DNA of 64,000 bases from an uncultured Actinomycetes bacterium. GTDB taxonomy: Bacteria > Actinomycetota > Thermoleophilia > Gaiellales > Gaiellaceae. Each line of letters opens with the position of its first letter. Within the stretch, counting starts at the first letter, position 1. A model generated the notes under the pieces. It had not been told where the DNA came from, ran no database searches, and saw nothing but the letters and a program-made list of their open reading frames with translations. The stretch spans positions 155,866-219,865 of the forward strand of contig CAVYQG010000002.1 in the NCBI GenBank assembly GCA_963770595.1, given 5' to 3'. This document shows, piece by piece, positions 20,633 through 43,038 of this stretch. A program made the position numbers and the translations under genes.

Positions 20633-20686
20633 TCCGAACCTCGCTTTCTGCGCCTTTCCTCCGTGTCGGCGCGTCGTGTCGAGACG

Positions 20687-24170: not shown

Positions 24171-24202
24171 ACGGTGCGTCCGGTCACTCAAGAAACGTTC
24201 AA
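24171..24202 (-). promoter_or_regulatory. Type I heptad-repeat promoter (TTGAACG-N4-TTGAGTG-N8-CACCGT)
   Basis: Heptads at 24196-24202 and 24185-24191; hexamer at 24171-24176. Upstream of the S8 protease, in the intergenic region shared with the divergent SARP-cyclase gene. Confidence 0.5.
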
Positions 24203-24263: not shown

Positions 24264-27200
24264 GTGGCAATGGGTGCAGAGCGCCGGGCAGGCGATGACG
24301 AGCTCGAGATCAGGCTTCTCGGCCCGCTGGAGGCGCTGAGAGGCGGAAGCGCGGTCGCGCTCGGCGGCCAGAAGCCGCGGGCGCTTCTCGCGGCGCTCGC
24401 GCTGGACACCGGCCGCGTCGTCTCAGTGGACGCTCTGATCGAGGATCTGTGGCCGGGCGAGGCGCCGGAGACGGCCCCGCACGCCGTGCAGGTGTACGTG
24501 TCGCAGCTCCGCAAGGCGCTCGGGCCGGTCATCGCGACGCGCCCGCCCGGCTATGCGCTCGAGCTCGAGCGCGACCGGATCGACGTCCACCGCTTCCAGC
24601 GGCTGGGCGATGACGGCCGCGCCGCACTGAACGCCGGCAGCCCCGAGCTCGCCGAGGGCGCGCTCCGCGACGCTCTCGCGCTCTGGCGCGGCCCCGCGCT
24701 CGCCGACTTCCTGTACGAGCCGTTCGCGCAGAACGAGATCGCGCGGCTCGAGGAGCTCCGCACGGTCGTGCTCGAGGAGCGGATCGACGCCGACCTCGCC
24801 CTCGGCCGCCACGCCGAGCTCGTCTCCGAGCTCGAGGGCCTCGTCGCGCGCGCAGCCGCTGCGGGAGCGGCCGCGCGCGCAGCTCATGCTCGCGCTCTAT
24901 CGCTCCGGCCGGCAGGCAGATGCGCTGGCCGCGTACCGCACGGCGCGCGAGACTCTCGATCGAGGAGCTCGGCATCGACCCCGGCCCGGAGCTCCGCGAG
25001 CTCGAGGCCGCGATCCTGCGCCAGGACGAGTCGCTGCTCCTCCCCGAGACGGCGCCGGTCAAGCCCGCGATGCAGTTCCGCCGGCTCGTCACGATCCTCT
25101 TCGTCGACGTCGTCGAGTCGATGGCACTGGCGGAGGCGCTCGACCCGGAGGCGCTCGGACGCGTGCTCCAGAGCTACTTCGAGACCGTGTCTGCGGCGCT
25201 CACCCGGCATGGCGGGACGGTGGAGAAGTACGCGGGTGACGCCGTGATGGCCGCGTTCGGTATTCCCGTCTCGCACGAGGACGACGCGCTGCGCGCCGCA
25301 CGCGCTGCCCTCGACATCCGGGTCGGGATCGCGGCGCTCAACGAGCAGCTCGTGCAGAAGCACGGAGTCGGGCTCGAGATCAGCGTCGGGATCGAGGCCG
25401 GTGAGGTCGTCGCCACGCCGACCGACGCGCGGCAACGCCTCGTGACAGGCGAGGCCGTGGGGATCGCGGCGAAGCTCGAGCAGGCGGCCGCTGCGGACGA
25501 GATCGTCGTCGGCGCTCTGGCCGGCCGGCTGATCGACCACGTCGCGACGCTCGAGCCGCTCGGAGAGATCGCGATCAAGGGCAAGCGTGATCCGGTGACC
25601 GGCGTACCGGCTGGTCGAGTTGCGCCCCGTCGGGTCGGCCTTCGACGAGCGCCAGGACGCGCGACTCGTCGGCCGCAAACGCGAGCTCGCGACGCTGCGG
25701 AGGACACTCAAGCGCTCGGTCGACGGCGCGGCCGTCAGCGTCGCGGTCGTCGTCGGTCCGCCCGGAGTCGGCAAGTCGCGCCTCGCCGCGGAGCTCACCG
25801 GCCGCGCCAAGGGCGTCACGACGCTGTGGGGCCGCTGCCTCTCCTATGGCGAGGGCATCACGTACTGGCCGCTGCGCGAGGCGCTCGAGCAGGCGGGCGC
25901 GGGGGAAGAGCGTGACGCAGTCCTCGCGGCGCTCGACGCCGAGACGCCCCCGTCCGGCGCCCGAGACCGCGTGGCTCTTCCGCCGCTTCTGCGAGGCGAC
26001 CGCCGGCGAGAAGCCGCTCGTCCTCGTCCTCGACGACGTCCACTGGGCCGAGCCGACCTTTCTCGAACTCGTCGAGCACCTTACGGACAAGGGCGTGGGG
26101 CCGATCGCCGTGGTCTGCCTCGCGCGCGAGGAGCTCCTCGAGGACCGCCCCGCGTTCCTCGAGGGGCGCGTGAACGTCGATCGAATCGTGCTCGACGCGC
26201 TCTCTGCGGAGGACACCGACTCGCTCCTCGACGGCCTCGGCGGGACGGTCCTCGAGTCGGATCAACGCGTCCGCATCGTCGAGACCGCGGAGGGGAATCC
26301 GCTCTTCGTCGAGCAGCTCCTCGCGCTCGCGCTCGAGGGCGGCCTCGCCGAACGTCCGCTTCCTGCGACGATCCAGGCCCTGCTGGCGGCGCGCCTCGAC
26401 CGGCTCGGCCCCGGCGAGCGCGCGGTGCTCGAACGCGGATCGATCGTGCTCAGGAACTTCACCCTGGACGACGTCGCGGCGCTGGTCGAGCCCGAGGCCG
26501 CGCCGACCGTAGGGGCGCACCTCGATGCCCTCGTGGCTCGCGGCTTCCTGCGTCCCCTCGCGGACGATGCCTTCCGCTTCCGCCACGTCCTCGTCCAGGA
26601 GGCGGTCTATCGCGCCGCTCCGAAGCGGCTGCGGGCGGAGCTGCACGAGCGCTTCGCAGGCCGGCTGGACGCCGACGTGCCGGATCTCGCCGACCTCGAC
26701 GAGTTCGTCGGCTACCACCTCGAACGGGCGTATCGGCTGCGGGTCGAGCTGGGCGAGTCCGATCGGCGCGTACAGTCGCTGGCCGAGGACTCGGGCCGAC
26801 GGCTCGGCGCTGCGGGCTTCCGCGCGCTCAAGCGCGGAGACATGTCCGCGACGGTGAACTTGCTCGACCGCGCTGTTGACCTGCTTCCGCGCGGCGACGA
26901 GGCGCGTCACGAGCTCCTGTGCGAGCTCGGGATCGCGCGCGATGCCTCGGGCGACCTTGAACGTGGCACCGACGACTTTCTGGCCGCGATCGACGGCGCT
27001 CGGGCCGCAGGGCAACGGCGGGTCGAGCTTCGGGCTCGCATCGAGGCGGCATATGCGCGGCTCCTCGGCGAGCCAGAAGGAGCGGCACGGGATCTGCTCG
27101 TCCTGGCGAAGGACGCTGTCCCGACGTTCGAGGCACTCGGCGATGAGCGAGGGCTGGCGCGCGCGTGGCTCCTGATCGGTTACGTGCGCGGAGGGATTCA

Positions 27201-28032
27201 CGGAGACCATGCTGCGTGGGAGCAGGCGGAGGAGCGTGCGCTCGGCTACTACCGAAGCACTGGGTTCCCACCCGCGACGTGCATGCAGCAGATCGCTGCA
27301 GCCGTCTACTGGGGTCCGACTCCCGTGGCGCACGGGATCGAGAAGTGCTCGAACTTGCTCGAGGAGCACGCCGCTGGCCAGTTCGGACGCGCGGCGGTCA
27401 TACCGTTCCTCGGCGGGCTCCACGCACAGGCTGGCGACTTCACGGAGGCGCGCCTGCTCATAGACGAGGCAGCCGGGACACTCACCGATCTCGGCGCCGC
27501 TGCGACCGTGATGGTCTTCTGTGGAACCGTGCGAGCGGACGTCGAGCTACTCGCCGGCGAGCTCGAGGCCGCGGAGGCGACGCTGCGCGAGCAATGCGAG
27601 TTCTTCGAACGGATGCGGAATCGTGGCACCTTGGCGGTCAGAGCAGCGAAGCTCGCCGAGGCGCTCTACCGGCAGGGACGGCTCGAGGATGCCGAGCAAT
27701 GGGCAGACGTCGCCCGATCCAACACGTCGAGCGACGATCAGAGCGCTCTGCTGGTCCTCGGCCCCGTGGAAGCGAGGCTTCTTGCACGACGCGGCGAGCT
27801 CTCCGAGGCTCGCGACCTGGCCGAAGAGGCTGTGCGCCTCGCGGACCGCACCGACGGGCTGAATCTGATCGCCTTCGCGCGGCTTGCGCTTGCCGAGGTG
27901 CTCGGCGCAGCCGATCTCGTCGACGAGGCTCAGCGTACGATCGCGGAGGCGATCGATCTGTTCGAACGGAAGGGCAACGTTGTCGCGGCCTCGCAGGCTC
28001 GTGCGCTCCTGGGCGTCGAGGTCACCACATGA
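24264..28032 (+). CDS. Multidomain regulator: SARP wHTH + BTAD + class III adenylate/guanylate cyclase + AAA/STAND ATPase + TPR; four frame breaks (~24850, ~24956, ~25601, ~25958)
   Basis: The ATG at 24270 has a GAGGAG SD. wHTH: IRLLGPLEALRGGSAVALGGQKPRALLAALAL...VYVSQLRKAL. BTAD: ALALWRGPALADF...LMLALYRSGRQADALAAY...LGIDPGPELRELEAAIL. Cyclase: VTILFVDVVES...GGTVEKYAGDAVMAAFG. Walker A VVVGPPGVGKSRL; Walker B LVLVLDDVHWAE. Long helical repeat C-terminus. Confidence 0.8.
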
Positions 28033-28083: not shown

Positions 28084-28194
28084 CTACCCGCCCTGCGGGC
28101 CGCCGTCGGCATATGCGACGAACGGAGCCGCGAGCGCGAGCAGACCGACTGCGAGCACGACGAGCGTGCGGTGCAGTGAAGTGACCTGGCGCAT
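28084..28194 (-). CDS. 36-codon secreted pre-peptide (MRQVTSLHRTLVVLAVGLLALAAPFVAYA|DGGPQGG)
   Basis: Strong SD GAGAGGAGGG 5 nt before the ATG. Canonical n-h-c signal peptide with an AxA site that leaves a 7-residue tail. It has its own heptad promoter and its own terminator. Confidence 0.5.
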   Translation of the reverse strand: MRQVTSLHRTLVVLAVGLLALAAPFVAYADGGPQGG

Positions 28195-28230: not shown

Positions 28231-28284
28231 ACGCTCGAGCCGACCGCTAACCGCCCGACCACAGACGGCTAACGGATCGCTAAT
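28231..28284 (-). promoter_or_regulatory. Type II phased-heptad promoter (ATTAGCG / GTTAGCC / weak / GTTAGCG -N8- GAGCGT)
   Basis: Minus-strand heptads at 28278-84, 28267-73, 28256-62 (weak) and 28245-51, all on an 11-bp phase. Hexamer at 28231-36. Upstream of the mini-gene. Confidence 0.5.
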
Positions 28285-28370
28285 AACTCGTGTCGCGTCA
28301 ATGCAATTCCGGCGCTCGATTTCCATGCGCCGGATGCTCGAATTTCACGAGCTATTTCACATCGGAATAA

Positions 28371-28398
28371 TCATGATTTCTCGTCGGAGAAACCATGA
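28371..28398 (-). terminator. Hairpin downstream of the GtrA operon
   Basis: TCATGATTTCTC-GTCG-GAGAAACCATGA (12-bp stem, one mismatch), 32 nt after the gtrA-like stop and followed on the minus strand by TTATTCC. Confidence 0.45.
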
Positions 28399-28429
28399 TC
28401 TTGAGCGAGTGAGGAGGTAGGGAAATGTC

Positions 28430-28828
28430 CTACGCGGCGTCCGGGCCAAGCCGGAAGGCGAAGCGCTTGCTCAGCACGAAGGAGAGTGGGACGAGGAGCG
28501 TTAGTGCGAGCGCCTGGGCGGGCCTCGGGTCGATCTCGAGGGCCTCGACGAGTCCCGCGAGCAGGACGACCGTGAGGCACGCGACGACCGCGCCGACCGC
28601 GACGTACCGGACGTAGGCGCCCACGAAGCCGTCGCGGGAGAGCCCGAACGTGAAGTAGCGGTTCCCCAGGTACATGGCCGTGTTCGAGACGACGTAGGCG
28701 AGAACCGATGCGGCGAGGTACCAGGTTCCGAGGCCGAACAGCGCGGTGAACGCGAGCACGTTGAGTGCGAAGCCGCCGCTTCCCACGACGACGAACCTGG
28801 CCGGCTGAGCGAGCCGCAACGCCATCAC
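28430..28828 (-). CDS. GtrA family membrane protein
   Basis: RFVVVGSGGFALNVLAFTALF...YVVSNTAMYLGNRYFTF...LSFVLSKRFAF, with four TM segments typical of the GtrA family. Confidence 0.85.
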   Translation of the reverse strand: MMALRLAQPARFVVVGSGGFALNVLAFTALFGLGTWYLAASVLAYVVSNTAMYLGNRYFTFGLSRDGFVGAYVRYVAVGAVVACLTVVLLAGLVEALEIDPRPAQALALTLLVPLSFVLSKRFAFRLGPDAA

Positions 28829-29721
28829 GCGATCGACGGTCGCAGCGCGCGCACGGGCTCCGAGCGCGACGCCTGGCGGAGCGTCCGGTCGAGCAGTGCG
28901 ACCAGGCGGGCGAGCCCCGGGCGAACGCGTGGCTGCACGTGGAGGAGTGCCGGGGTCACGGTCAGGCGAACGTCGCGTCCGGCCTCGGTGAGCGCGAGCG
29001 ACTCGTCGACGGGGAAGAACGGGTCGTGCGGAGACGACGCGAGCTCGACCGGAGCCGTCACGGCGCCGATGCGCGAGAGCGGCGAGAGCTCCTCGACGAG
29101 CGCTCGCGTTTCGGGCGAAAGCGCGGCGTAGAGCTCGTCGAAGCGTGCGGGATCGCGGTTGGCCAGGAGGTCATGGACAGCGGCGTCGTCCGGCGCCGAC
29201 ACGGCGAGCGATCGCGTCGCCGCGCGCGCGAGCAGCGGCGCGGCATCGAAGGGGCGGTCGCCGTAGAAGCCCGTGGTCGCGAGCCGCAGGACGTTCCGGA
29301 GGCTCGCAAAAGGGGCGATCCCCGCCACCGCCGTCACGCGGTCCGCGAGCCTCGGGTCGCCGGCCGCGAGGATCGCGAGCCCGGCTCCCGTCGACGCGCC
29401 GATGAGCGCGACCTCCTGGCTCGCCGCCCGCGCGACCGAGACGAGCGCGTCGATCGTCTCCGGTGTGACCTCGCCTTCGCGCACGCGTGGGAGCTCCGGC
29501 GCGACGGCGACGAAACCTGCGTCGGCGAGTGCGCCGAGGAAGCGCCCGACCGCGGGCTGCTCGACCCCGAGCGGCGTTGCGGCATTCACGTACACGACCA
29601 CCGGCCCAGAGCCGCGTCGGGGCCGCGCGACGAGCGCCTCGACACCTGCGACGTGACCGCGCTCGCACGCGCGAGCGTTGCCGTGCAACGTCGCGGCGAG
29701 AACGGTGAGCGCGCGGATCAC
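28825..29721 (-). CDS. Alpha/beta hydrolase fold protein (dienelactone-hydrolase-like)
   Basis: GTGA overlap with the upstream FAD gene stop (start VIRALTVLAA). VVVYVNAATPLG...ALIGASTGAGLA (nucleophile-elbow-like GxSxG)...SSPHDPFFP. The longer ORF to 29991 is an out-of-frame overlap. Confidence 0.65.
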   Translation of the reverse strand: MIRALTVLAATLHGNARACERGHVAGVEALVARPRRGSGPVVVYVNAATPLGVEQPAVGRFLGALADAGFVAVAPELPRVREGEVTPETIDALVSVARAASQEVALIGASTGAGLAILAAGDPRLADRVTAVAGIAPFASLRNVLRLATTGFYGDRPFDAAPLLARAATRSLAVSAPDDAAVHDLLANRDPARFDELYAALSPETRALVEELSPLSRIGAVTAPVELASSPHDPFFPVDESLALTEAGRDVRLTVTPALLHVQPRVRPGLARLVALLDRTLRQASRSEPVRALRPSIA

Positions 29722-31079
29722 GCGGCCGCCTCGAGCTCGATGGTCGAGCGCAGCCAGCGATACCAGTCGCTCTGGAGGAGCTCGCTCGGGTCGTGCTCGT
29801 GCTTCGCACCCAGGAACTCCGGCAGCTGCGGATAGGCGCCGAGCAGCTGGCGCTGTGTCGCCCAGCGGTGGTACGTGAGGTAGAAGCTCCCACCGCGTTC
29901 GAGCGCGAGGTCGATGAGCCGTCGGAAGGCGACTGCGGCGTGCTCGATCCCCGTCGTCGTGTGCTCGACGTGGAGGTTCAGGACGACGCACGCCCAGGGC
30001 TCACGCGCCCAGGCGAGCAGCGTCTCGTCGTCGCGCTCGATGAGCCGGACGGTGCCGTAGACGACGTCGGCCTCGAGCGCGCGCAGATCGCGTGCGGCCG
30101 CCGCGAGGAAGTCCGCGAGGAGCGGCCGCGGAACGTACAGCTCGGTGATCATCTCGCTCGACCCCGTCCAGTGGTAGCCGGGCACGTAGCGGGCGAGCTG
30201 GTGCCGGTCGGAGAGGTAGACCTGGCCGGACGAGGCGAGGTAGTGGGCCGCGTACAGCTCGTAGGCACGTGCCTTGTCCGAATGGGCCAGATGCAGCAGC
30301 CGGCTCCAGTCCTCGGCGGAGAGCGTGGCCTCGGCGTCGAGCCGCGTCTCGTCGGGGACGGGGCGGTAGCACGAGCAGATCCCGCGCTGGAGGAACCCGG
30401 GCGAGGCAGGGTCGACCTCGAACTGGAAGTCGCCGTAGAGGTAGCCGCCGTCGATCCGTTGCGCGAAGAGCTCCTCGAGCTCGTGCGCGTGGGCGAGGCG
30501 CACCACGCGCTCGACCTTCCGGCGGCGATCGAGCCGAAGGGTGGCCGAGTGAATGACGCCGAAGAGGCCGTAGCCGCCGCAGACGAGGCGGAACAGGTCG
30601 GCGTTCTCGTCGCGTGAGCAGCGCCGCGCGGCGCCGTCCGGCCCCACGACGACGAGGCTCTCGAGGTCGGCGACGAGCGGGCCGTACCCCAGCCCGCGCC
30701 CGTGGGCGTTGGCCGAGACGGCGCCGCCGATGCAGAGGTCGTCCGCACCGGTCTGCTTCTGGCGGATCGCCCAGGGCGTGTCCTCGAGCGCGTCGACGAG
30801 GGCGGGCCACTGGATGCCGGCTTCGACCTCGACCAGCCCGCGCTCCTCGTCGATTGAGAGGACCCGGGACATCGGGCGGGTATCGAGGACGACACCGCCC
30901 GCGCGGAACTGCTGCCCGCCCATGGCGTGGCGCCCGCCGGCGATCGAGACCGGACGGCCGGACGAGCGGGCGAGATCCATGGCCGCGCCGATCGACTCGA
31001 GCGAGTCGACAGGCACGACCGCGCCGACGTCGGTCTCGTTCAGCCGGGAATGGACATCGTTGACGACGACGCCGGTCAT
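29718..31079 (-). CDS. FAD-binding oxidoreductase (PCMH/FAD_binding_4 type)
   Basis: SIAGGRHAMGGQQF...VEVEAGIQWPALV...IGGAVSANAHGRG...DLFRLVCGGYGLFGVIHSATLRL. 453 aa uninterrupted. Confidence 0.85.
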   Translation of the reverse strand: MTGVVVNDVHSRLNETDVGAVVPVDSLESIGAAMDLARSSGRPVSIAGGRHAMGGQQFRAGGVVLDTRPMSRVLSIDEERGLVEVEAGIQWPALVDALEDTPWAIRQKQTGADDLCIGGAVSANAHGRGLGYGPLVADLESLVVVGPDGAARRCSRDENADLFRLVCGGYGLFGVIHSATLRLDRRRKVERVVRLAHAHELEELFAQRIDGGYLYGDFQFEVDPASPGFLQRGICSCYRPVPDETRLDAEATLSAEDWSRLLHLAHSDKARAYELYAAHYLASSGQVYLSDRHQLARYVPGYHWTGSSEMITELYVPRPLLADFLAAAARDLRALEADVVYGTVRLIERDDETLLAWAREPWACVVLNLHVEHTTTGIEHAAVAFRRLIDLALERGGSFYLTYHRWATQRQLLGAYPQLPEFLGAKHEHDPSELLQSDWYRWLRSTIELEAAA

Positions 31080-31264
31080 CGGGGCCTGAGCGTGAGGTCG
31101 AACGGGACGAACGAGAAGAGCGCGAACCAGGCGACGGCGACGGCTGCGAGGGCGACGAGCACGAGGACGACCTCTGCAGTCTTCCGCCCGATCTGACGCG
31201 CGGTCACGGAGCTCGTGAGGGCGCCGTGACGCAACGGATGGGTGCTGTGTGTGGCCATGCCCAC
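31076..31264 (-). CDS. Small single-TM protein, first gene of the FAD/hydrolase/GtrA operon
   Basis: ATGA overlap with the FAD gene start. TM helix VVLVLVALAAVAVAWFALFSFVPF. Confidence 0.4.
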   Translation of the reverse strand: MGMATHSTHPLRHGALTSSVTARQIGRKTAEVVLVLVALAAVAVAWFALFSFVPFDLTLRPR

Positions 31265-31390
31265 GACGCTAGGCCGCAGGGCGAGCCCTGGTAACCGGGC
31301 GCGCTCGGGACTCGTCTCGGGGTTCTCCCCGATCTTCTGACCGGGGCGCGCCCCCTGGTTTGGGCCCGAGCACTATGTGACGATGCGCAT

Positions 31391-33145
31391 GTGAGCGGAA
31401 CCCGCCTCGTTCAGGCAGTTCTCGCGACGACAGGCCTGATCCTCGGTGTCGTCGCGTACCAGAGTCAGGTCAACAATCTCGGCCTCTACACGACGCCTCT
31501 CCGGTCGTTCGCGATCGCCGCAGTGGGCTTGTCGTTCCTCGCCGCCGGCCTCGTGGCGTGGTCGCGGCGCTCGGACAATCGCATGGGGCCGCTGATGATC
31601 GCCGCCGGCTTCGCGCTGCTCCTGCGGCAGCTCCGGTACGGCCACGACCCGGCGGCATTCACGGTGTTCTTCGCGCTCGGAAACCTCGGCTACGCGCTCG
31701 TCGGGCACTCGGTGCTCGCGTATCCGTCGGGGCGCGTCACGGATCGGTACGAGCGGGCACTTGTCCGCGTCGGCTACGCGACGGTGCTCGCGTTCCCGCT
31801 GGCCGTGCTGCTCTTCGTCGACGCGGTGCAGCCGCTCGACGAGTTCCCGACGCCGCGTCGGAGCGCACTGTCCATCTTCGCCGAGGCCGGCGTCGTCGAC
31901 GCGCTCCAGAAGGCGTTCGTGATCGTGTTCTACGGCGTCCTGGCCACGCTCTTCATCGCGCTCGTCGCCCGCCGGCTGGTGCGCGCGACGCGGCGTGAGC
32001 GGCGGATCCTCGCCCCGCTCCTGCTCTTCGCGATCGCGCTCGCGCTCCGGGCAGTGTACGAGTGCGTGTCGACCTTCGTCGACCAGCGACTCGCCTACGA
32101 CTACCTCTTCTGGTGGCAGATCATCGGTTTCATCGCTCTCCCGCTGGCGCTGCTGGCGGGCCTGCTGCGTGCCCGGCTCGCCCGCGTGCACGTGGGCGAG
32201 CTCGTCGTGCATCTCGAGCAGACCCCGGTCGAGGGGATTCGCGACGAGCTCGCCGAGGCGCTCGACGACGAGACCCTCGCGCTGGGCCTCTGGCTTCCGG
32301 AGCGTGGCGAGTACGTCGATGCCGGCGGGCGCGCGCTGGTCGTGCCGGACGACGGCCCGACCAGGGCCGTGACCTGGATCGAGCACGAAGGCGAGCCACT
32401 CGCTGTCCTCGTCCACGATCCCTCGCTGCGCGAGGAGCCGAGGCTCGTCGAGGCTGTTGCCGCGGCGGCCCGTTTCGCGCTCGTGAACGCGCGTCTCCAC
32501 GCCGAGGTGCGTGCACAGCTCGAGACGGTGAAGGAGTCCCGGGCACGGATCGCCACCGCTGCCGACACCGAGCGGCGGCGCATCGAGCGCGACTTGCACG
32601 ACGGTGCGCAGCAGCGGCTCGTCGCGCTCGCGCTCGAGCTCCGGAGCGCGCAGCGCGGGCTCGGCGAGGGCGCGGACCCCGAGCTCGACCTTCTCCTCGC
32701 GTCCACCGCCGACGAGCTCCACGTCGCCGTCGAGGAGCTGCGCTCGCTTGCGCACGGCATTCATCCGGGCGCGCTGACGCAGGCCGGGCTGGCCTCTGCG
32801 CTCGAAGCGCTGGCGGCGCGGGCTCCCATTCCGGTCGCGGTCGATGCGACGACGGAGCGCTTCCCGCCCGAGGTCGAGGTGACCGCCTACTTCGTCGCGA
32901 GCGAAGCGCTGACGAACGTCGTCAAGCATGCGCAGGCGTCGAAGGCCGCCGTCCGCGCCAGCCGTGAGGCCGCGACGCTCGTCATCGAGGTCTCCGACGA
33001 CGGCGTGGGCGGCGCGGCCGCCGACAACGGCTCCGGGCTGCACGGTCTCGCCGACCGCGTCGAGGCGCAAGGCGGTCGGCTCTCGGTCGACAGCGCACGG
33101 GGAGCGGGCACGCGCGTCCGAGGGGAGATTCCGTGCGCGTCGTGA
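31391..33145 (+). CDS. Sensor histidine kinase (HisKA_3 / NarX-DesK type) with polytopic N-terminal sensor
   Basis: Multiple TM helices. ERRRIERDLHDGAQQRLVAL (H box). HATPase motifs SDDGVGG...GSGLHGLADRVEAQGGRL. GACGAT lies 6 nt before the GTG. Confidence 0.88.
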   Translation: MSGTRLVQAVLATTGLILGVVAYQSQVNNLGLYTTPLRSFAIAAVGLSFLAAGLVAWSRRSDNRMGPLMIAAGFALLLRQLRYGHDPAAFTVFFALGNLGYALVGHSVLAYPSGRVTDRYERALVRVGYATVLAFPLAVLLFVDAVQPLDEFPTPRRSALSIFAEAGVVDALQKAFVIVFYGVLATLFIALVARRLVRATRRERRILAPLLLFAIALALRAVYECVSTFVDQRLAYDYLFWWQIIGFIALPLALLAGLLRARLARVHVGELVVHLEQTPVEGIRDELAEALDDETLALGLWLPERGEYVDAGGRALVVPDDGPTRAVTWIEHEGEPLAVLVHDPSLREEPRLVEAVAAAARFALVNARLHAEVRAQLETVKESRARIATAADTERRRIERDLHDGAQQRLVALALELRSAQRGLGEGADPELDLLLASTADELHVAVEELRSLAHGIHPGALTQAGLASALEALAARAPIPVAVDATTERFPPEVEVTAYFVASEALTNVVKHAQASKAAVRASREAATLVIEVSDDGVGGAAADNGSGLHGLADRVEAQGGRLSVDSARGAGTRVRGEIPCAS

Positions 33146-33777
33146 TCGCCGAGGACTCGGTGCTGCTGCGCGAGGGCCTCGCACGGGTGCTCGCCGAGGG
33201 CGGCTTCGAGGTAATCGCTCAGGCGGCGAACGCGGACGAACTCAAGAAGGCAGTGCGCCGCTTCAAGCCGGACGTCGCCGTGGTGGACGTGCGCATGCCC
33301 CCGACGCAGACGGACGAGGGCGCGCAGGCGGCGGTCGAGATCCGCGCCGAGCAGCCCGACGTGGCGGTGCTCCTCCTCTCGCAGGTCGTGGAGGCGACAC
33401 ATGCGCTCGCGCTCGTCAGCGAGAAGCCGGAGGGGTTCGGCTACCTGCTCAAGGACCGCGTGCTCGAGATCGACGACTTCCTCGACGCCGTCTGGCGCGT
33501 GGGAAAGGGCGGGACCGCCATCGACCCGGTGGTCATCGGACAGCTCATCGGTCGCCGTCGGGAGGACGACCCGCTCGACGAGCTGACGGCCCGTGAGCGC
33601 GAGGTGCTCGAGCTCATGGCGCAGGGGCTGTCCAACAAGGGCATCTGCGAGAAGCTCTTCGTGAGCCCGAAGACCGTCGAGACGCACGTGGGCTCGATCT
33701 TCGGGAAGCTCGGTCTCCTGCCGGCACAGGACGAGCACCGCCGCGTGCTGGCGGTGCTCGCATTCCTGCGTTCCTAG
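33133..33777 (+). CDS. Response regulator, NarL/LuxR family
   Basis: REC domain VVIAEDSVLLREG...DVAVVDVRMPP. LuxR HTH LTAREREVLELMAQGLSNKGICEKLFVSPKTVETHV. Overlaps the kinase gene end. Confidence 0.92.
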   Translation: MRVVIAEDSVLLREGLARVLAEGGFEVIAQAANADELKKAVRRFKPDVAVVDVRMPPTQTDEGAQAAVEIRAEQPDVAVLLLSQVVEATHALALVSEKPEGFGYLLKDRVLEIDDFLDAVWRVGKGGTAIDPVVIGQLIGRRREDDPLDELTAREREVLELMAQGLSNKGICEKLFVSPKTVETHVGSIFGKLGLLPAQDEHRRVLAVLAFLRS

Positions 33778-33971
33778 TGAGGTCCGACGTCGAAGCGCAG
33801 CGAGCCGGGGAGCAGTCGGCCGGCGAGGGGCATCGGGGCGGAGACCGCCGCGGAGGCCTCGGGCCGCCAGCTCGGTTCGCAGCCGGCTGCGCGGAAGACG
33901 TCCACCGCGGCAAGGTAGCGCGTGATCTCGTCGATCAGCGTCTTGGTATCGGTGTCGAGCGTCAGGGTCAT
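33774..33971 (-). CDS. Small hypothetical protein (65 aa)
   Basis: Start chosen at ATG 33971 (MTLTLDTDTKTLIDEITRYLAAV...). The heptad promoter places a -10-like GACCAT 6 nt upstream, implying a leaderless transcript. Confidence 0.45.
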   Translation of the reverse strand: MTLTLDTDTKTLIDEITRYLAAVDVFRAAGCEPSWRPEASAAVSAPMPLAGRLLPGSLRFDVGPH

Positions 33972-33977
33972 GGCGGC

Positions 33978-34009
33978 ATGGTCTCCAGCCGCGCTCAAGG
34001 TCGGCTCAA
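33978..34009 (-). promoter_or_regulatory. Type I heptad-repeat promoter (TTGAGCC-N4-TTGAGCG-N8-GACCAT)
   Basis: Heptads at 34003-34009 and 33992-33998; hexamer at 33978-33983. The ATG lies 6 nt downstream. Confidence 0.5.
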
Positions 34010-34012
34010 CGC

Positions 34013-35038
34013 TCACGGCCGTCCGCCTTCGTTCTGGACGCTGAAGCCGAGCCGGCCGACGTCCCGGTTCCCGGCCGTGTCGCTCGCCACCACGACCAGC
34101 TCGTAGTCGCCGTTACGGAGCGCGCTCGTGTCGAAAGTGGAAAGCCTGAACAGGTACCGGCCGGTGAGGAAGCGCTCCTTGCGTCCGGAGAAGACGGGCC
34201 AGTTCTGGTGCGTGCCGCGCGCGAACGTCGTCCAGAAGCCGTCGTTCTTCGGCACGACGCGGCGAACGTCGCGCGCTATCCGCCGACCGACGACGACGCG
34301 CCCCGAGGCGTCCTCGATGCTCCACGCGACGAGTGCCGGGGTGACCGGGAAGCCGTGCCAGCGCCCGGGGACGGGCAGCGCGGGCATGTCGATCGCCTCG
34401 GCCGCGAGGACGACCCGGCCCCGCACGTGCTCCGCTCCGCCCGCGCCGCGAATCGAGACTCCGACGACCTGCGGGACGGTCGAGTCGCGGTACGGCGTCA
34501 GGCGTCCGGAAGCGAGCGGGCTCACGGCGCGATTTCGCTCGAGGTGCGTCAGGTGCACGTGCTCGCGCTTCTGCTGGACGAAGCCGAGGAGGGTCTTGCC
34601 GGCGACGGCGTGCTGTCCCACCCGCGCTGCCGGATCGATGTGCCAGTACTGGAACGAGCGTCCGTTCCCGCAGTCCACGGTAACGCGGCCGCCGCGCGCC
34701 CGGACGACCGTGCCCGAGCTGACGGCGTAGACGGGCGACCCGTCGGGCGCCGAGATGTCGAGGCCCTGGTGGAACGAGAAGCCGCCCCGGCCCTGGAGGA
34801 TCGTTCGCTCCGAGCGCTCACCACGGAACACCGTGCGGGGATCGCCGAACGAGCCCCTGATCGGGTGCGCGCGGTCGAACGGCTTGACGGGCCAGCCGTA
34901 GGCGCCGGTGCAGCCGGTGCCCGTCGAGACCGCCAGTGCGGAGGTCGCGACGGCGAGGCCGAGGAGCGCGATCAGGACGGCGAGCGCGGTCGATGCGACG
35001 AGGGCTCTTGCGGTTGAGGTGGTGCGTGCGGTAGCCAT
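34013..35038 (-). CDS. Secreted M23 family metallopeptidase (paralog 1)
   Basis: Signal MATARTTSTARALVASTALAVLIALLGLAVATSALA. FHQGLDISAP (HxxxD) and EHVHLTH (HxH) motifs. Conserved C-terminal extension shared with paralog 2. Confidence 0.8.
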   Translation of the reverse strand: MATARTTSTARALVASTALAVLIALLGLAVATSALAVSTGTGCTGAYGWPVKPFDRAHPIRGSFGDPRTVFRGERSERTILQGRGGFSFHQGLDISAPDGSPVYAVSSGTVVRARGGRVTVDCGNGRSFQYWHIDPAARVGQHAVAGKTLLGFVQQKREHVHLTHLERNRAVSPLASGRLTPYRDSTVPQVVGVSIRGAGGAEHVRGRVVLAAEAIDMPALPVPGRWHGFPVTPALVAWSIEDASGRVVVGRRIARDVRRVVPKNDGFWTTFARGTHQNWPVFSGRKERFLTGRYLFRLSTFDTSALRNGDYELVVVASDTAGNRDVGRLGFSVQNEGGRP

Positions 35039-35045
35039 GGCCCGC

Positions 35046-35099
35046 ACGCTCGGAGGGGCCCCAAACCGGCCGGCAACCGCCCCCTAACCGCTCGCTAAC
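35046..35099 (-). promoter_or_regulatory. Type II phased-heptad promoter (GTTAGCG / GTTAGGG / GTTGCCG / GTTTGGG -N8- GAGCGT)
   Basis: Heptads at 35093-99, 35082-88, 35071-77 and 35060-66 (11-bp phase). Hexamer at 35046-51, 7 nt before ATG 35038. Confidence 0.55.
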
Positions 35100-35115
35100 G
35101 CCGGCCGGCGGGCGC

Positions 35116-36102
35116 TCAGCGCCCCAGCACGAGCGGAACCCGCCGGGTCGCGGTGTTTCCCCGCGTGTCGCGCACGGAGACCTCGACGAGGTACGCGCCC
35201 CCGCGGAAGCGGGCGACATCGCGGCTGAGGACGACCCTGTACCGGCCCGGTGCCCGGACGTGGTTCTGACTCGTCCCGGGCGCCCACACGTCGTCGAAGG
35301 CCGAGGCGGGCGGGATCGTGAGCCTGACGTCGAGGGCGGTGCTCCAGTCGGAAACCGGCCGGCGCTTCGCGTCGAGCAGGCGCCAGCGGACGAGCGCGGG
35401 CATGACCGGGAGGTCGTGCCACGGCCTCGGAACCGCGAGCGGCGTCTCGTCGTACGCCTCGGCGACCAGGTGCCTGCCGTCGGTGGCGACCGATCCGACG
35501 GTCGGCCTCGTTCGGTCGACGTACGGGCCCAGTGCGCCCGCTCGGAGCGGGTTCAGGTAGCGGCCGTGGCGCATCTCCGAGAAGTGCACGTGCGCGTACG
35601 GGGCCTCGATGTGACCGATCAGGGTCCTGTACGCGACCACCCGCTGGCCGGTCCTCACGGTCGGGACGACGTGCCAGTAGCTGAACTCGGCCCCGTCCGG
35701 CCCGGAGATCAGGACGGTCGTGTCGTGGAGCGGGTGGATCGACGCGGTGCCGGTCAGCGTTGCGTACACGGGCGTCGCGTTCGGCGCGGAGATGTCGACG
35801 CCGAAGTGGAACTGCCTCGACTGCTGGTGGTTCGAGATGCGCGGGTCGCCGAAGAAGCCCCGGACGGGGTGCTGTGCGCGGAACGGCTTGACGGGCCAGG
35901 CGTATGCGTACGGAGCGGCGCTCGCACTCCGCGCCAGGCGTGGAGCTGCGGGGCGGTCGTGCGGTGCGGCGAGCAGGCCCGCTCCCACCGCAGTCTGCGT
36001 GGGCACGAGTTGCGCGGCCATCAGGACGGCGCCCGCGGTGGCGACCGCGGCGCCGGTGAGAACGATCGGCCGAGACGTGAGACGTACGCGTGGAGTCGTC
36101 AT
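35116..36102 (-). CDS. Secreted M23 family metallopeptidase (paralog 2)
   Basis: Start at ATG 36102 (MTTPRVRLTSRPIVLTGAAVATAGAVLMAA). FHFGVDISAP and AHVHFSE motifs. Collinear with paralog 1 throughout. Confidence 0.8.
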   Translation of the reverse strand: MTTPRVRLTSRPIVLTGAAVATAGAVLMAAQLVPTQTAVGAGLLAAPHDRPAAPRLARSASAAPYAYAWPVKPFRAQHPVRGFFGDPRISNHQQSRQFHFGVDISAPNATPVYATLTGTASIHPLHDTTVLISGPDGAEFSYWHVVPTVRTGQRVVAYRTLIGHIEAPYAHVHFSEMRHGRYLNPLRAGALGPYVDRTRPTVGSVATDGRHLVAEAYDETPLAVPRPWHDLPVMPALVRWRLLDAKRRPVSDWSTALDVRLTIPPASAFDDVWAPGTSQNHVRAPGRYRVVLSRDVARFRGGAYLVEVSVRDTRGNTATRRVPLVLGR

Positions 36103-36109
36103 GCCCGGC

Positions 36110-36163
36110 ACGGTCGGAGGGGGCTCCAACCGGCCGGCAATGGCCGACTAACCGGGGGCTAAC
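36110..36163 (-). promoter_or_regulatory. Type II phased-heptad promoter (GTTAGCC / GTTAGTC / ATTGCCG / GTTGGAG -N8- GACCGT)
   Basis: Heptads at 36157-63, 36146-52, 36135-41 and 36124-30. Hexamer at 36110-15, 7 nt before ATG 36102. Confidence 0.55.
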
Positions 36164-36192: not shown

Positions 36193-36224
36193 TTGAGCAC
36201 GCGTTGAGGGCGGGAGGCTTCGAT
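36193..36224 (+). promoter_or_regulatory. Type I heptad-repeat promoter on the plus strand (TTGAGCA-N4-TTGAGGG-N8-TTCGAT) upstream of the SARP-SIR2 gene
   Basis: Heptads at 36193-99 and 36204-10, an 8-nt gap, hexamer at 36219-24. Same geometry as the five minus-strand type I sites. Confidence 0.5.
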
Positions 36225-36291: not shown

Positions 36292-37920
36292 GTGTCAGTT
36301 GTGACGTACGAGTTCAGGATCCTCGGTCCCCTCGAGGTCTCGGGTGAGACCGGTCCCGTCGCGCTCGGAGGGCAGCGGCAACGCGCGCTCCTCGCGGCGC
36401 TCCTGATCGAGGCCGGCCGCGTCGTGCCGACTGAGCGCCTCGTCGACCTCCTGTGGGGCGAGGCCGCGCCGAGGACCGCGACGACGTCGCTCCAGAACTC
36501 GATCTCACGGTTGCGGCGCGAGCTCGGCGCAGACCTCCTCGAGACGCGTGCGCCCGGCTACGTACTCCGCGTCGACCCGCAGCAGGTGGACGCGCATCGC
36601 TTCGAACGGCTTCTGCGCGACGCGCGCGGCTCGGAGGCCGCCGCGCGGCGCGAGACGCTGCGCGAGGCTCTCGCGCTCTGGCGAGGCCCCGCCCTCGCCG
36701 AGTTCGCCTTCGAGCCGTTCGCGCAGGCGGAGATCCGCCGGCTCGAGGAGCTCCGGCTCGTCGCGCTCGAGGAGCGGATCGATGCCGACCTCGAGCTGGG
36801 CCGCCACGAGCGACGTCGTGGGCGAGCTCGAGGCACTCGTCGGCGAGCATCCGCTGCGGGAGACCTTCAGACGGCAGCAGATGCTCGCGCTCTACCGATC
36901 GGGCCGCCAGGCGGAGGCGCTCGACGCGTACCAGGACGCTCGCTCCCGCTTCGTCGAGGAGCTCGGCATCGAGCCCGGGCCGGAGCTCAAGCGTCTCCAG
37001 GCGGAGATCCTCGGCAGGAGGCGGGAATCGCCGCGCCCGGCGCGACCTCGCCCGACGACCGACGACGAAGCCGAGATCGTGGCGGCGCTCCTCGCCGGCC
37101 GGGTCGTGCCCGTGCTCGGGCTCGACGGCGTCGGCGACCTCGCCGCGCACCTCGCGTCGGCGTTCTCCGTCCCCGACGACCGGCCGGTCGACCTCGCGCG
37201 CGTCTCGCAGTACGTCGCGACGATGCAGGGCTCGGGGCCGCTGTACGACGAGCTGCACGCGCTCTTCGAGGCCGCCACCGAGCCGAGCGCGCTGCACCGC
37301 TTCCTCGCCCAGCTGCCCGCGCTCCTCCGCGAGCGTGGCGCGCCGCACCAGCTCATCGTGAGCACGAACTACGACCTCGCGCTCGAGCGGGCGTTCGAGG
37401 ACGCGGACGAGGAGCTCGACATCGTCACGTACGTCGCCAGCGGTCCGCATCGCGGTCGCTTCTGGCATCGGCCGCCCGGCGAGCCGCCGCGCCCGATCGA
37501 CGTTCCCAACACGTACGCGACGGAGCTCTCGCTCGAGCAGCGGACGATCCTGCTCAAGCTCCACGGTGCCGTCGACCCGCTCCCCGAGCGCGAGTGGGAG
37601 AGCTTCGTCATCACCGAGGACGACTACATCGACTACCTCGGGCAGCTCCGAGCTGGCGGCAGTCGTCCCCGTGTCGCTGGCCGCCAAGCTGCGGCGCAGC
37701 CACTTCCTCTTCCTCGGCTACGAGATGGCCGACTGGAACCTGCGCCTGATCCTCAACCGCCTCTGGGGGGAGCGGCCGATCGCGCTATCGCTCGTGGGCG
37801 GTGCAGAGCTCGCCGAGCCCGCTCGCGCAGGCGTTCTGGCGCCGATACGACGTGACGCCGCTCGACGTCGAGCCCGAGGCGTACGTCGCGCTGCTCGGAC
37901 GGAGGCTGGAGGCGGCATGA
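36292..37920 (+). CDS. SARP wHTH + BTAD + SIR2-like (SIR2_2 type) domain protein; three frame breaks (~36808, ~37645, ~37790)
   Basis: wHTH: FRILGPLEVSGETGPVALGGQRQRALLAALL. BTAD: ALALWRGPALAEF...QMLALYRSGRQAEALDAY...LGIEPGPELKRLQAEIL. SIR2-like: GRVVPVLG, HQLIVSTNYDLALERAF, ILLKLHGAV, FVITEDDYIDY, HFLFLGYEMADWNLRLIL. Ends ...LGRRLEAA with TGA 37918-37920. Confidence 0.75.
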
Positions 37921-40900
37921 GCGCCGACGCGCCGTTCGCCCGTACAAGGGCCTGAGCGCGTTCGAGGACTCGGAGGTCGACGCGCTCCTCTTCTTCGGCC
38001 GCGAGCGCGAGCGGGAGATCGTGGTCGCGAACCTGATCGCCTCGCGGCTGACGGTCCTGTACGGACCGAGCGGCGTCGGCAAGTCGTCGCTGCTCCGCGC
38101 GGCGGTCGCGCGCTCGCTGCGTGAGCTCCCCGAGCAGCCGCTCGTCGTCGTCTTCTCGCGCTGGAGCGACGATCCGGCCGCCGCGCTCGCCGAGACCGTT
38201 GCCGAGGCCGGTCGGAGGGGGGACGAACGGCACGGCTGCCGAGGCGCTCGCGCGAGCACAGGTCGACCGCGACGTCTACCTCGTGCTCGACCAGGCGGAG
38301 GAGTACTTCCTCTACCACGCCGACGACGGTGGCATCGGCTCGTTCGCGGAGGCGCTGCCGGCGCTGCTCGCGGCGCCGCGCCGCGTCAACGTCCTCGTCT
38401 CGCTGCGCGAGGACTCGCTCGCGAAGCTCGACCGCTTCACGGGCCGGATTCCCGGGCTCTTCGCCAACACCTCCGCCTCGACCGCCTCGACCGCGACTCG
38501 GCGCAGCGCGGCGATCGTGCGGCCCGCTCGAGCGCTTCGCCGAGCTGACGGGTGACGACGTCACGGTCGAGCCGGCGCTCGTCGAGCGGGTGCTCGACGA
38601 GGTCGGCGCGGGCCAGATCGAGCCTCGCGCTCGGCGGGCTCGGAGCCGTCGAGGGCGCCGAGCGACGCGGCGCGGATCGAGGCGCCGTACCTCCAGCTCG
38701 TCATGCAGCGGATCTGGGAGGAGGAGCGAGCGGCCGGCTCGGACGTGCTCGCGGCTCGAGACGCTCGAGCGGCTCGGCGGCGGCGCAGCGCATCGTCGAG
38801 GAGCACCTCGACGGGCGCTCTCGACGAGCTGTCGCCCGCGCAGCAAGGACGTCGCCGCGCGCCTGTTCAACCACCTCGTGACGCCGTCGGGAACGAAGAT
38901 CGCGCACGAGGTCTCGGACCTCGCCGACTTCGGCGGCGTTCGCCGTGGACGAGGTCAAGCCGGTGCTCGCGAGTCGCTCGCCGAGCGGCGGATCCTGCGC
39001 TCGCGTCGAGGAGGGCGGCGGGGTCCGGTACGAGATCTTCCACGACGTGCTCGCGGAGCCGTGCTCGCCTGGCGCGTCGAGCGCACGAGGCCGAGCGCGA
39101 CCTCGAGCTGCAGAAGCGCGACTCCGACCGTCGGCATCGGCGCTTGCTCGGCGTCATCGCCGTCGGGGCGGTGCTTCTCGCGACGATGGGCGCGATAACG
39201 GCGTTCGCGCTCACGCAGCGCTCCGAGGCCAGGAACCAGGCGCGCGCGTCGAAGGCGAACGAGCTCGTGGCGGTGTCCGGCGCCGAGCGCGCTCGCGACC
39301 CGGAGCTCAGCCTCGCTCTCGCGCTCGAGGCGTCCCGCCTCGATCCGAGCGAGAGCTCCGAGCAGGCGCTGCGCCAGGCGCTCAACCAGTCGCGCATGCG
39401 AGGCGTCGTGGACCTCGGTGAGCCGGTGGTGGGCGCAGCTCCGCTCGGGCGCCTCGTTCTGGGTGTCTCCGAGAGCGGGGAGCTCGTGGAGGCGAATCCG
39501 GCCACCGGCGAGATCCTGGGGCGCGTGGACACGGGCAGCCCGGCCGCCGATGTGTCGTTCTCGACCGACGGGACGCCGCTCGTCACGGGCCGAGACGGCA
39601 GCGTGCTGCTGGTCCGGGGAGGCGACGCGATCGCCGTCCCCGGGGTCACGGAGGCTCGAGCGGCGTCGATCTCGCCCGACGGCAGCCTCGCGGCGGTCGT
39701 CGAGCCTCGCGGCGTGCGGCTCGTCGACGTCGAGTCCGGCTCGGTGCTCGAGTCGTACGACCATCCAGGCGCGATCTCGGCGGCCGTGTCGTACGACAAC
39801 CGGCGGGTGGCGACGGGAGGGGCGGACGATCAGGTTCACATCTGGTCGGGTCAGAGCGGTCGCCGCGTCCACACGCTCACCGAGCACGACGGGAACGCGG
39901 TCGCGCTCGAGTTCAGCCCTGACGGCGCCCGTGTCGCGACCGCCTCGAGCGACGGCGTCGGCCGGCTCTTCCGTACCGCCGACTGGGGCCTCTCGTCCGT
40001 CGTCACCGGCCACACGCACTCGTTGCGGGACATCGCGTTCAGCTCCGACAGCGAGCACGTCGTCACCGCGGGCGAGGACGGGACGGCGCAGGTCTTTCAC
40101 GTAGACACCGGAGACCAGCTCGTCGTCCTCGCGGGCAGCGACGACTGGGTGATGTCCGCGGCCTTCGCAGGCGGGGTCGGGAGCCCGATCGTCACGGCAG
40201 GCCGGGACGGGACGATCCGCGTCTGGGATTCCGTCTTCCAGCCGGAGCTTGAGCTGCTCACCGAGCTTCCGAGCGCGGTGGTGTACGTCGAGTTCGACGA
40301 CGACGGCCGGCTTCGCGCGACGACGGACGTCGGGCGCGCACACATCCTCGACCCGGCTACCGGCGAGGTCCTGGAGGTCGTGCGGGGCGCGAAGCCGAGA
40401 CGCGACCAGGGACCGAGCGGGGAGGTCGCGACGATCCGCGGAAAGACGGTCGTCCTCCGGACGGGGTCGGGCACCCGGACGCTCGAAGGGCATCGCGACC
40501 GCGTCACGGGCGTCGACTTTTCCCCGGACGGTGCGCTGCTCGTCACGTCGAGCAGGGACAGCGACGCTCGCATCTGGAGGGTCGCCGACGGCGAGTCGAT
40601 CCAGGCTCTGCAGCACAACACGGCCGTGCACGACGCCCGGTTCAGCCCGGACGGGAAGTGGGTCGTCACGGCTGCGTTTCGCGGCAGCCTGTGGGACGTG
40701 AGTGACGGCTCCAACCTCTTGCGCCTGCAGGGCCACGACGGGACGCTCACGACCGCGACCTTCGACCCCACGGGACACACGGTGTTCACGGGCGGGGTCG
40801 ACGGCACCGTGCGGACCTACGAGTGCGGGCTATGCGGCGGCCTCGACGAGCTCGTCTCGCTGGCGGAGGCGCGCCTGGCTGCCACCCGCCGCGGCCTGAC

Positions 40901-41653: not shown

Positions 41654-41688
41654 GTGCGCGATCCTAGTGCCGTAGCGCACGAGTCGCA

Positions 41689-43022: not shown

Positions 43023-43038
43023 GGGCGCTGGGTGCCGT

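Follow-up and report, generated by a model that had tools for sequence, protein, structure and literature searches.

The window analysed here, a stretch of 64,000 nt with a G+C content of 71.5%, comes from an uncultured Gaiellaceae bacterium (GCA_963770595.1, contig CAVYQG010000002.1, positions 155,866 to 219,865 of the forward strand). It contains a block of about 24 kb, bounded by polA/coaE and uvrB/uvrA according to Pfam scans of the window, that encodes two regulators with the DNA-binding head of a Streptomyces antibiotic regulatory protein (SARP). On the minus strand of this block, three arrays of heptads with a GTT core stand in front of two M23 peptidase genes (M23 #1 and M23 #2) and a mini-gene for a peptide of 36 aa. 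We name the GTTRGCG family of heptads class 2, a second family with the sequence TTGAGCG class 1, and the two SARP-headed regulators A and B. Based on sequence comparison, the best explanation of the GTT arrays, and in our judgement a likely one, is that they serve as operators of SARP-dependent promoters, probably bound by the SARP-SIR2 protein.

The mini-gene array (28245..28284) reads ATTAGCG (28284-28278), GTTAGCC (28273-28267), GTGGTCG (28262-28256) and GTTAGCG (28251-28245) and is followed, after eight nucleotides (N8), by the hexamer GAGCGT (28231..28236), which is found in all mini-gene sites. Upstream of M23 #1 (array 35060..35099) the heptads GTTAGCG, GTTAGGG, GTTGCCG and GTTTGGG start at 35099, 35088, 35077 and 35066, again with N8 between the fourth heptad and GAGCGT (35046..35051), from which 7 nt lead to the ATG at 35038. 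The array of M23 #2 (36124..36163) consists of GTTAGCC (36163), GTTAGTC (36152), ATTGCCG (36141) and GTTGGAG (36130), N8 and GACCGT (36110..36115), likewise 7 nt from its ATG (36102). At three of three window sites the heptads are direct repeats on the same strand and start exactly 11 nt apart. The arrays had been reported in a preliminary description of this DNA; a base-by-base check of the minus strand reproduced their positions and heptads, and both the 11-nt phase and the N8 gap hold at all three sites and at all sites in relatives. Of the consensus given there, GTTAGCS, the family itself stands but the formula is too narrow: G1-T2-T3 is invariant and the general unit is GTT-R-G-C-G. Moreover, the heptads before M23 genes depend on their position, the third being GTTGCCG and the fourth GTTkGrG, while the third heptad of the mini-gene is a conserved weak GTG(G/A)yyG.

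The arrays stand out clearly from the surrounding DNA. The string GTTAG-N6-GTTAG, with at most one mismatch, occurs three times in the window and only at these sites (expected 0.26; none of 100 shuffles reached three), and all four occurrences of the word GTTAGC in the 64 kb lie within the arrays. A weight matrix made of one generic heptad repeated four times at 11-bp steps plus the hexamer, with training sites from other genomes only, gives 43.0 bits for M23 #1, 40.0 bits for M23 #2 and 35.1 bits for the mini-gene, whereas the next non-overlapping position in the window scores 0.2 bits and the best of 100 first-order Markov random windows 13.4 bits. Since the matrix was trained on other genomes, the mini-gene site is an independent, highly significant instance of the motif. 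With the spacing of the same matrix set to 9, 10 or 12 bp, no arrays were found in the window (best score at most 5). A match of 21 bits at 13-bp spacing was discarded as an unrelated 13-bp tandem repeat at 6186-6220. On the plus strand this region carries about 2.3 copies of the direct repeat GTTGCCGATGGAC, then TAGAGT, 6 nt and an ATG at about 6269, and resembles a further leaderless promoter equipped with a repeat operator of its own.

The hexamer GAsCGT retains only A2 and T6 of the TANNNT motif. From its fixed distance of 6-7 nt to leaderless start codons we infer that GAGCGT or GACCGT acts as a weak -10 element. When the three regions were scanned for sigma-70 consensus promoters, a search of little power in high-GC actinobacteria, nothing appeared at the array sites, consistent with promoters that depend on an activator. 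An RNA element was rejected, given that the inferred start sites lie downstream of the arrays and that no leader is predicted for the M23 mRNAs.

M23 peptidase paralogue 1 (34013..35038, minus strand; 341 aa with an N-terminal signal/anchor) and paralogue 2 (35116..36102, minus strand; 328 aa) score 39.9 and 30.6 bits, respectively, with Peptidase_M23 (Pfam cut-off 28.7), and leaderless mRNAs are predicted for both. M23 #1 has 622 homologues, the best non-self match being 73% identical. We scanned the 22 loci returned by a genome scan for relatives, mostly from metagenome-assembled genomes (MAGs) of uncultured Gaiellaceae or Actinomycetes and most of them from Microflora Danica (MFD) MAGs, with a pattern of four phased GTT triplets that required neither hexamer nor ATG. 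Matches were found almost only directly upstream of M23 start codons (expectation for the window 0.03), and every true match also carried N8, GAsCGT, 6-7 nt and ATG. The resulting consensus before M23 genes is GTTrGCG-N4-GTTAGcs-N4-GTTGCCG-N4-GTTkGrG-N8-GAsCGT; for the generic unit, G is found in 50, T in 52 and T in 51 of 52 cases, followed by R, G, C and G. Arrays are retained before M23 homologues that are only 60-75% identical, and in the intergenic region between the divergent genes arrays and hexamers are conserved but the remaining DNA cannot be aligned. Neither a SARP neighbour nor a full array was found for M23 paralogues located elsewhere, two of them in the MAG of locus L001; L010 retains a partial remnant of two heptads. 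In L012 (7030) and L020 (7027), the array of the second M23 gene is of class 2 except at position 2, where the unit is a class-1-like GTGAGCC, and the hexamer GAGGCT stands 6 nt from the ATG; this promoter may be a natural hybrid of the two heptad families.

The mini-gene (28084..28194, minus strand) encodes a Sec-type signal peptide with an AxA site, MRQVTSLHRTLVVLAVGLLALAAPFVAYA, followed by the 7-residue Gly/Pro-rich tail DGGPQGG. Unlike the M23 genes, it has a leader: 36 nt separate GAGCGT from the ATG at 28194 and include a GAGGAGG Shine-Dalgarno sequence, and a hairpin follows the stop codon. By matrix, a site of this type was found in L001, L002, L003, L012, L013, L016, L018 and L020, in addition to about 24 metagenome loci among the matches listed. 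These sites in relatives have a weak third unit (GTGGyyG or GTGACCG), GAGCGT and a leader of 36-39 nt with GGAGG, before open reading frames (ORFs) of 36-37 codons with a hairpin behind them. Conservation in relatives had been singled out in advance as a check on the mini-gene site, and phase, 8-nt gap, GAGCGT and weak third heptad are indeed all kept. Among 28 distinct DNA versions of the mini-gene, differences from the majority number 58, 49 and 154 at codon positions 1, 2 and 3, respectively, a pattern which indicates coding selection on this ORF. The N-terminus M(R/H)QVTxxHRTLVVLAVGLLALAAPLVA(Y/S)A is nearly invariant, and the 7-8 residues past the AxA site vary while staying Gly/Pro-rich. 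Lysostaphin-type M23 peptidases typically cleave Gly-Gly bonds, and a link between the Gly-rich tails and the M23 peptidases is conceivable.

Upstream of the mini-gene array, the minus strand contains an unusually AT-rich stretch (28290-28420). Its hairpin CCGGCGC-N12-GCGCCGG, which L013, L016 and L018 have conserved, probably terminates the GtrA/FAD operon. The same stretch also holds the near-palindrome GAAATCATGATT and a promoter-like match on the plus strand (28344-28371).

The extent of the regulon in relatives was assessed with the pattern GTTRG-N6-GTTRG-N17-RTTNG-N10-GASCGT, which has no start codon built in. All metagenome counts given in this text are counts among the matches listed (120 contigs) and represent lower bounds. 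The list contains 131 matches, 27 of which are tandem repeats, AT-rich DNA or other unrelated matches. For 103 of the remaining 104 a start codon follows at a stereotyped distance, and the other one runs off its contig; the enrichment of phased GTT arrays upstream of genes that the preliminary description called for is thus present without having been built into the search. Leaderless genes, with the ATG 6-7 nt after the hexamer, encode DMFA2_C-like proteins (28 listed, plus L091 with an ORF that is cut short), M23 peptidases (26), polysaccharide deacetylases of family Polysacc_deac_1 (5) and others, an alpha/beta hydrolase among them (4). In total the 6-7 nt distance is found at 63 listed sites and in at least five protein families, and no Shine-Dalgarno sequence is evident by eye before the leaderless ATGs in the sequences inspected, whereas one is present before the peptide genes. 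Both observations agree with the earlier proposal that the M23 mRNAs are leaderless.

Sites with a leader precede about 24 signal-peptide mini-genes, 11 tiny Gly-rich ORFs of 11-16 codons, one gene for a 55-aa peptide and three DMFA2_C-like genes, so that about 36 listed sites stand before small peptide genes with a Shine-Dalgarno leader. The tiny ORFs, found behind a class-2 array in the more distant relatives L040, L042, L059, L062, L080, L095, L100, L123 and L131 (e.g., L062, 1080-1210), lack a signal peptide, encode peptides such as MQKQPGGGGPGGSGG and MRKQPGGGGGNGGI, and are convergent to a SARP-cyclase-AAA-TPR gene where enough flanking sequence matched. In a sister clade (L028, L030, L057 and 23 further loci; e.g., L057, 2330-2520), the array precedes a leaderless gene for a secreted DMFA2_C-like protein of about 440 aa with a DDDDG motif and a divergent SARP-SIR2 gene begins just about 40 nt away from where the array starts; this SARP-SIR2 gene, preceded by a TACAAA hexamer, seems to be leaderless too. 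The DMFA2_C-like gene of the window differs from that of the sister clade in lying downstream of a class-1 promoter. Taken together, the class-2 targets look like one regulon of exported cell-envelope enzymes and a small Gly/Pro-rich peptide; recurring as it does in about a hundred related sequences from metagenomes, the array points to a single circuit of control.

This recurrence bears on one alternative, namely that the arrays have no regulatory function and resemble each other by descent (tandem duplication, recent divergence) or as compositional repeats. The two M23 genes are tandem paralogues, and the metagenome pattern catches tandem repeats as well, the false positives just mentioned amounting to roughly a fifth of the list. 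However, the M23 #1 and M23 #2 proteins are only 39% identical while their promoters share about 80% of positions, and both promoters match those of distant genomes, which does not fit the tandem duplication that the preliminary description had considered as a source of their likeness. The same array stands before unrelated gene families and the mini-gene, for which reason duplication or descent as the only cause was rejected; the flanking intergenic DNA is not conserved while the distance to the start codon is fixed, and the null models are exceeded by more than 20 bits. We regard an absence of function as wholly improbable.

Regulator A (24264..28032, plus strand) combines a SARP head with a guanylate-cyclase-like region, AAA_16 and TPR in a layout like that of PimR and the SARP-LAL regulators, and its 3' end is convergent with the mini-gene. 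Regulator B (36292..37955, plus strand) consists of a SARP head (Trans_reg_C and BTAD) followed by SIR2_2 and is encoded divergently from the adjacent M23 #2 gene. Trans_reg_C and BTAD exceed the Pfam cut-offs in both proteins, and both match the SARP domain of AfsR (E = 6e-28 for A; E = 4e-21 for B, with 8hvr) as well as EmbR; for the TPR region of A, Pfam gives only MalT-like TPR and TPR_12. The recognition helices, TA(A/P)HA(V/I)QVYVSQLRK in A and TAT(A/T)SLQNS(I/V)xRLR(R/K) in B, are conserved within each orthologue group and differ between the two, in agreement with the earlier statement that the block holds two SARP-headed regulators. In the window, A is spread over four overlapping reading-frame segments and B over three reading frames, while relatives have single ORFs of 1252 and 538 aa, respectively. 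Judged from Pfam domains across frames, the DMFA2_C-like gene (40928-43180) and uvrA (47995-51549) are also split, over 2-4 frames. Because the housekeeping gene uvrA is affected too, the frame breaks are probably assembly indel errors, likely of long-read origin, and not signs of pseudogenes.

The position of the arrays relative to these regulators is stereotyped across relatives. Upstream sequence of at least 450 nt is available for 74 leaderless sites, and at 58 of these a divergent SARP head lies within 450 nt, with regulator B as the best SARP match at 54 of the 58; most of the other 16 sites belong to the second gene of a tandem pair, like M23 #1. At 35 of 44 leader-type sites, the 3' end of an A-type TPR regulator gene is convergent within 700 nt. 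The nine exceptions are mostly repeat false positives or DMFA2_C genes with a leader, and two of them are the tiny-peptide loci L040 and L059, where no TPR match above threshold was obtained. L130 (about 9172-9225) and L136 (2515, reverse strand) carry another arrangement, GTTAGCG-N4-GTTAGCC-N15-GTTAGCC, beside a third kind of SARP head with the helix TAPTALHGHVS(N/S)LRK.

Class-1 sites have an architecture of their own, a TTGAGCG pair (typically two units, sometimes three), the same N8 gap and a hexamer (G/C/A)AnnnT, and number 62 in 966 kb of related loci. That two related but distinct heptad families exist, as had been claimed, is evident from their alignment in the same register, T1-T2-G3-A4-G5-C6-G7 versus G1-T2-T3-R4-G5-C6-G7. 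In the window, class-1 sites lie on the minus strand at 20701-20718, 21648-21665, 24185-24202, 33992-34009 and 43979-43997, and on the plus strand at 36194..36211, where TTGAGCA-N4-TTGAGGG, N8 and TTCGAT face the SARP-SIR2 gene B. This last pair stands back to back with the class-2 array of M23 #2 in one divergent intergenic region and is conserved in relatives as CGCTCAAG-N3-GCTCAAG. The class-1 targets comprise two secreted-looking proteins, the ORF 24141-23173, located ahead of the S8 protease gene and overlapping with it, the small protein 34016-33774, which is leaderless, the PD40 protein and the B gene. Pfam assigned no family to the proteins 20156-20707 and 20765-21613 or to the reading 43930-46074, and no heptads were found in front of the gene of regulator A itself.

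The whole SARP block, at about 20100-43900 between polA/coaE (11588-17653) and uvrB/uvrA (43838-51549), looks like an insertion into a housekeeping gene neighbourhood. Besides the genes discussed above, Pfam scans place within it an S8 subtilase (22164-23696, minus strand), GtrA, one ORF without family assignment, an FAD oxidase, a HisKA_3 kinase with a LuxR-type response regulator, and a WD40, a PD40 and a DMFA2_C-like protein; the small protein 34016-33774 is on the minus strand.

For the class-2 promoters we propose the following mechanism. Four SARP DNA-binding heads, each on its own 11-bp unit, would align along the same face of the helix, replace the missing -35 element and recruit RNA polymerase in the way that has been shown structurally for AfsR. 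The M23 transcripts would then begin with the A of the ATG or a nucleotide adjacent to it and be leaderless, whereas the mini-gene would yield a transcript with a leader of roughly 30 nt that carries the Shine-Dalgarno sequence. Regulator A would bind the TTGAGCG promoters of B, of the ORF 24141-23173 and of several small secreted proteins. The outcome would be a cascade, in which A activates B and B, on four-unit GTT arrays, activates the leaderless hydrolases and the peptide gene. Both the binding of SARPs to the arrays and transcription from GAsCGT are what we infer from these sequences.

Which of the two regulators reads the GTT arrays is a question of its own. Regulator B is our choice, by a modest preference, and three observations favour it. 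Firstly, the sister clade (26 loci, 185 kb) combines SARP-SIR2, WD40, a class-2 array and the DMFA2_C-like gene, and no A-type regulator and no class-1 site were found there, compared to 57 class-1 sites in 717 kb elsewhere. Secondly, class-2 arrays remain beside SARP-SIR2 genes while the target gene changes. Thirdly, all SARP heads beside class-2 arrays share the helix motif SLQN. In AfsR, T88 contacts position 3 of the heptamer on the template strand and R92 contacts the T at position 1; SLQN puts an Asn at the T88 position, and heptamer position 3 corresponds to the invariant T:A pair of class 2.

Several points weigh against this interpretation. The sister-clade contigs are short, and the absence of an A-type regulator holds only within about 10 kb. 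The class-2 peptide genes always adjoin A and not B; as the M23 genes adjoin B, gene proximity fails to separate the two. Contigs of the tiny-peptide clade show no SARP but one with the architecture of A, albeit with an SLQN helix, which sits between a class-1-like (G/A)TGAGCG array and a class-2 array. Among SLQN heads the residue equivalent to AfsR R92 varies (R, Q or A); an assignment of A or B from the recognition helix alone was dropped as ambiguous, only the Asn at the T88 position being constant. With regard to the operators as such, characterised SARPs have been described with two or three heptads and not with four; as a -10 element GAsCGT is poor, and it is taken for one only because of its conserved distance to start codons; and A and B, both frame-broken in the window, could, less probably, be pseudogenes in this genome.

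Some of these observations would be explained as well if the roles were exchanged, i.e., if the arrays were SARP operators bound by regulator A and B bound TTGAGCG, including its own promoter, in an autoregulatory manner. This arrangement would account for the class-2 peptide genes that are convergent to an A-type regulator (35 of 44), for the tiny-peptide clade, where no SARP other than one of A architecture was seen near a class-2 site, and for the TTGAGCG directly before the B gene. B also keeps the Arg that in AfsR contacts the T at position 1, and class 1 begins with T and class 2 with G. Yet, in the sister clade, where the contigs show SARP-SIR2 only, class-2 arrays occur in the absence of class-1 sites, the regulator of the tiny-peptide clade carries the B-like SLQN helix and not the QVYVSQ helix of A, and class-2 arrays lie beside SARP-SIR2 in the divergent region whatever the target gene. 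We judge A to be an improbable binder of the arrays. Most of the probability beyond the separate assignments to B and to A falls on SARP binding in general, by either or both regulators.

A binder from outside the SARP family was considered as well, namely a PhoP-like or MtrA-like response regulator of the OmpR/PhoB family encoded elsewhere, with the SARP genes as coincidental neighbours. PHO boxes of Streptomyces are 11-nt direct repeats with a GTTCACC core, which the 11-bp period and the GTT core of the arrays resemble, and MtrA controls cell-wall hydrolases in Actinobacteria, so that the wall-remodelling targets recall MtrA-like biology. In addition, overlapping binding sequences are known for AfsR and PhoP (PMC10936776). 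The likeness ends, however, at G1-T2-T3, as positions 4-7 are RGCG in class 2. The only two-component pair of the block is of the HisKA_3/LuxR type (LuxR/NarL) and is absent from many loci that keep the arrays, SARP linkage is very tight in three clades with changing targets, and the distance of 8 bp to the -10 is a published hallmark of SARPs. PHO-box or MtrA-type sites were rejected, given no fit beyond GTT and no linked OmpR-type response regulator, and a binder of this family seems to us very unlikely. SARP operators, with B as the favoured binder, remain the explanation we retain, and as a whole the earlier interpretation is supported, every prediction that could be tested computationally having held.

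The constant neighbourhood of the peptide gene and regulator A raises a further idea. In every clade examined, the peptide gene is paired with a TPR-regulator gene, even where the peptides have 11-16 residues and no signal peptide, and in the mini-genes the export signal is conserved and the tail variable, as in pherotype diversification. This constant pairing with the TPR end of A, together with the conserved export signal and the variable tail, suggests a feedback of the peptide on regulator A, which is speculation. By analogy, the mini-gene and A might form a peptide-signalling pair that works in an RRNPP-like manner on a SARP-STAND-TPR receptor, an idea we put forward tentatively and hold to be rather doubtful. 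The propeptide would be exported and cut after AxA, the neighbouring S8 subtilase could trim it further, and the variable Gly/Pro-rich tail would be sensed by the TPR module of A. Via the cascade from A to B, the peptide would feed back on its own class-2 promoter and switch on secreted wall hydrolases. Literature searches found no peptide/TPR system of such a kind in Actinomycetota; if the idea is true, it would represent ribosomal-peptide signalling of a kind that these searches did not find described for this phylum.

To our knowledge, SARPs are known almost only as switches of antibiotic clusters in Streptomyces. Here, promoters of the same design appear to govern exported peptidoglycan-active enzymes and a tiny peptide as a conserved regulon in an abundant, uncultured soil lineage, the Gaiellaceae-like Thermoleophilia, with SARP heads placed on unusual modules (SIR2 in B, cyclase-AAA-TPR in A). 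The analysis provides a precise operator model, consisting of four GTT units, N8, a weak -10 and a leaderless start, along with a ready list of targets. The TTGAGCG and GTTRGCG families moreover constitute a natural pair of closely related sequences for studying how SARP heads discriminate between DNA sites.

Among known systems, the likeness to the RRNPP peptide quorum-sensing pairs of Firmicutes (Rap/Phr, PlcR/PapR, NprR/NprX) lies in a propeptide gene beside the gene of a TPR-containing cytoplasmic regulator, in a propeptide built from a signal peptide and a short variable C-terminal tail, and in a propeptide promoter controlled by its own circuit. An S8 subtilase gene, moreover, is found on the other side of regulator A, and S8 subtilases are the protease class that matures Phr peptides. 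The receptor here is, however, a STAND-type SARP-cyclase-AAA-TPR protein, and some relatives encode peptides of 11-16 aa without a signal peptide. In Actinomycetota, signals have been described as small molecules and not as peptides (PMC10075063).

Regulator A has the same module order as PimR and other SARP-LAL regulators (PimR, SanG, PolR), i.e., a SARP head, a guanylate-cyclase-like region and a large ATPase. PimR also heads a cascade (PimR to PimM), comparable to the one proposed from A to B, and its operator consists of three heptamers with 4-bp spacers that are bound cooperatively, one monomer per unit (PMC5930380). The differences are that the PimR heptamer is CGGCAAG, that the PimR operator does not overlap the -35 and that its targets are not those found here. 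PimR has also been described without an N-terminal guanylate-cyclase signature, whereas A scores above the Pfam cut-off for Guanylate_cyc and ends in TPR.

For the arrays themselves, the known counterparts are the SARP operators of Streptomyces, such as the afs box of AfsR at afsS and the sites of ActII-ORF4 and DnrI. The heptamer consensus of ActII-ORF4 and DnrI is TCGAGCG, with which class-1 TTGAGCG agrees at 6 of 7 positions in the same register; its agreement with the AfsR sequence TTCAGC is 5 of 6 positions. The arrays share with these operators the direct heptads on the transcribed strand, the 11-bp period, the 8 bp to the -10, a sub-optimal -10 and the lack of a usable -35. In general, SARP target promoters have direct repeats 11 or 22 bp apart, the 3' repeat being located 8 bp from the -10 (PMC10936776), and AfsR protomers in the complex read one 11-bp repeat each, at a core promoter that is sub-optimal. 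All features of such an operator that sequence can show are found here, namely direct heptads on the same strand, the 11-bp period, N8 to a -10-like hexamer, a weak core promoter and a SARP in the locus. The class-2 core is nevertheless GTT (G1-T2-T3) and not the T-x-G-A-G of Streptomyces SARP sites, with four units instead of the two or three at characterised SARPs. The targets are leaderless genes of exported wall enzymes and a mini-peptide gene instead of antibiotic clusters, and the host is an uncultured Gaiellaceae-like bacterium whose SARP heads are fused to SIR2 or cyclase-AAA-TPR. What is new relative to known SARP operators is thus the combination of the GTT heptad core, four units, leaderless targets, a cell-envelope regulon and unusual partner domains.

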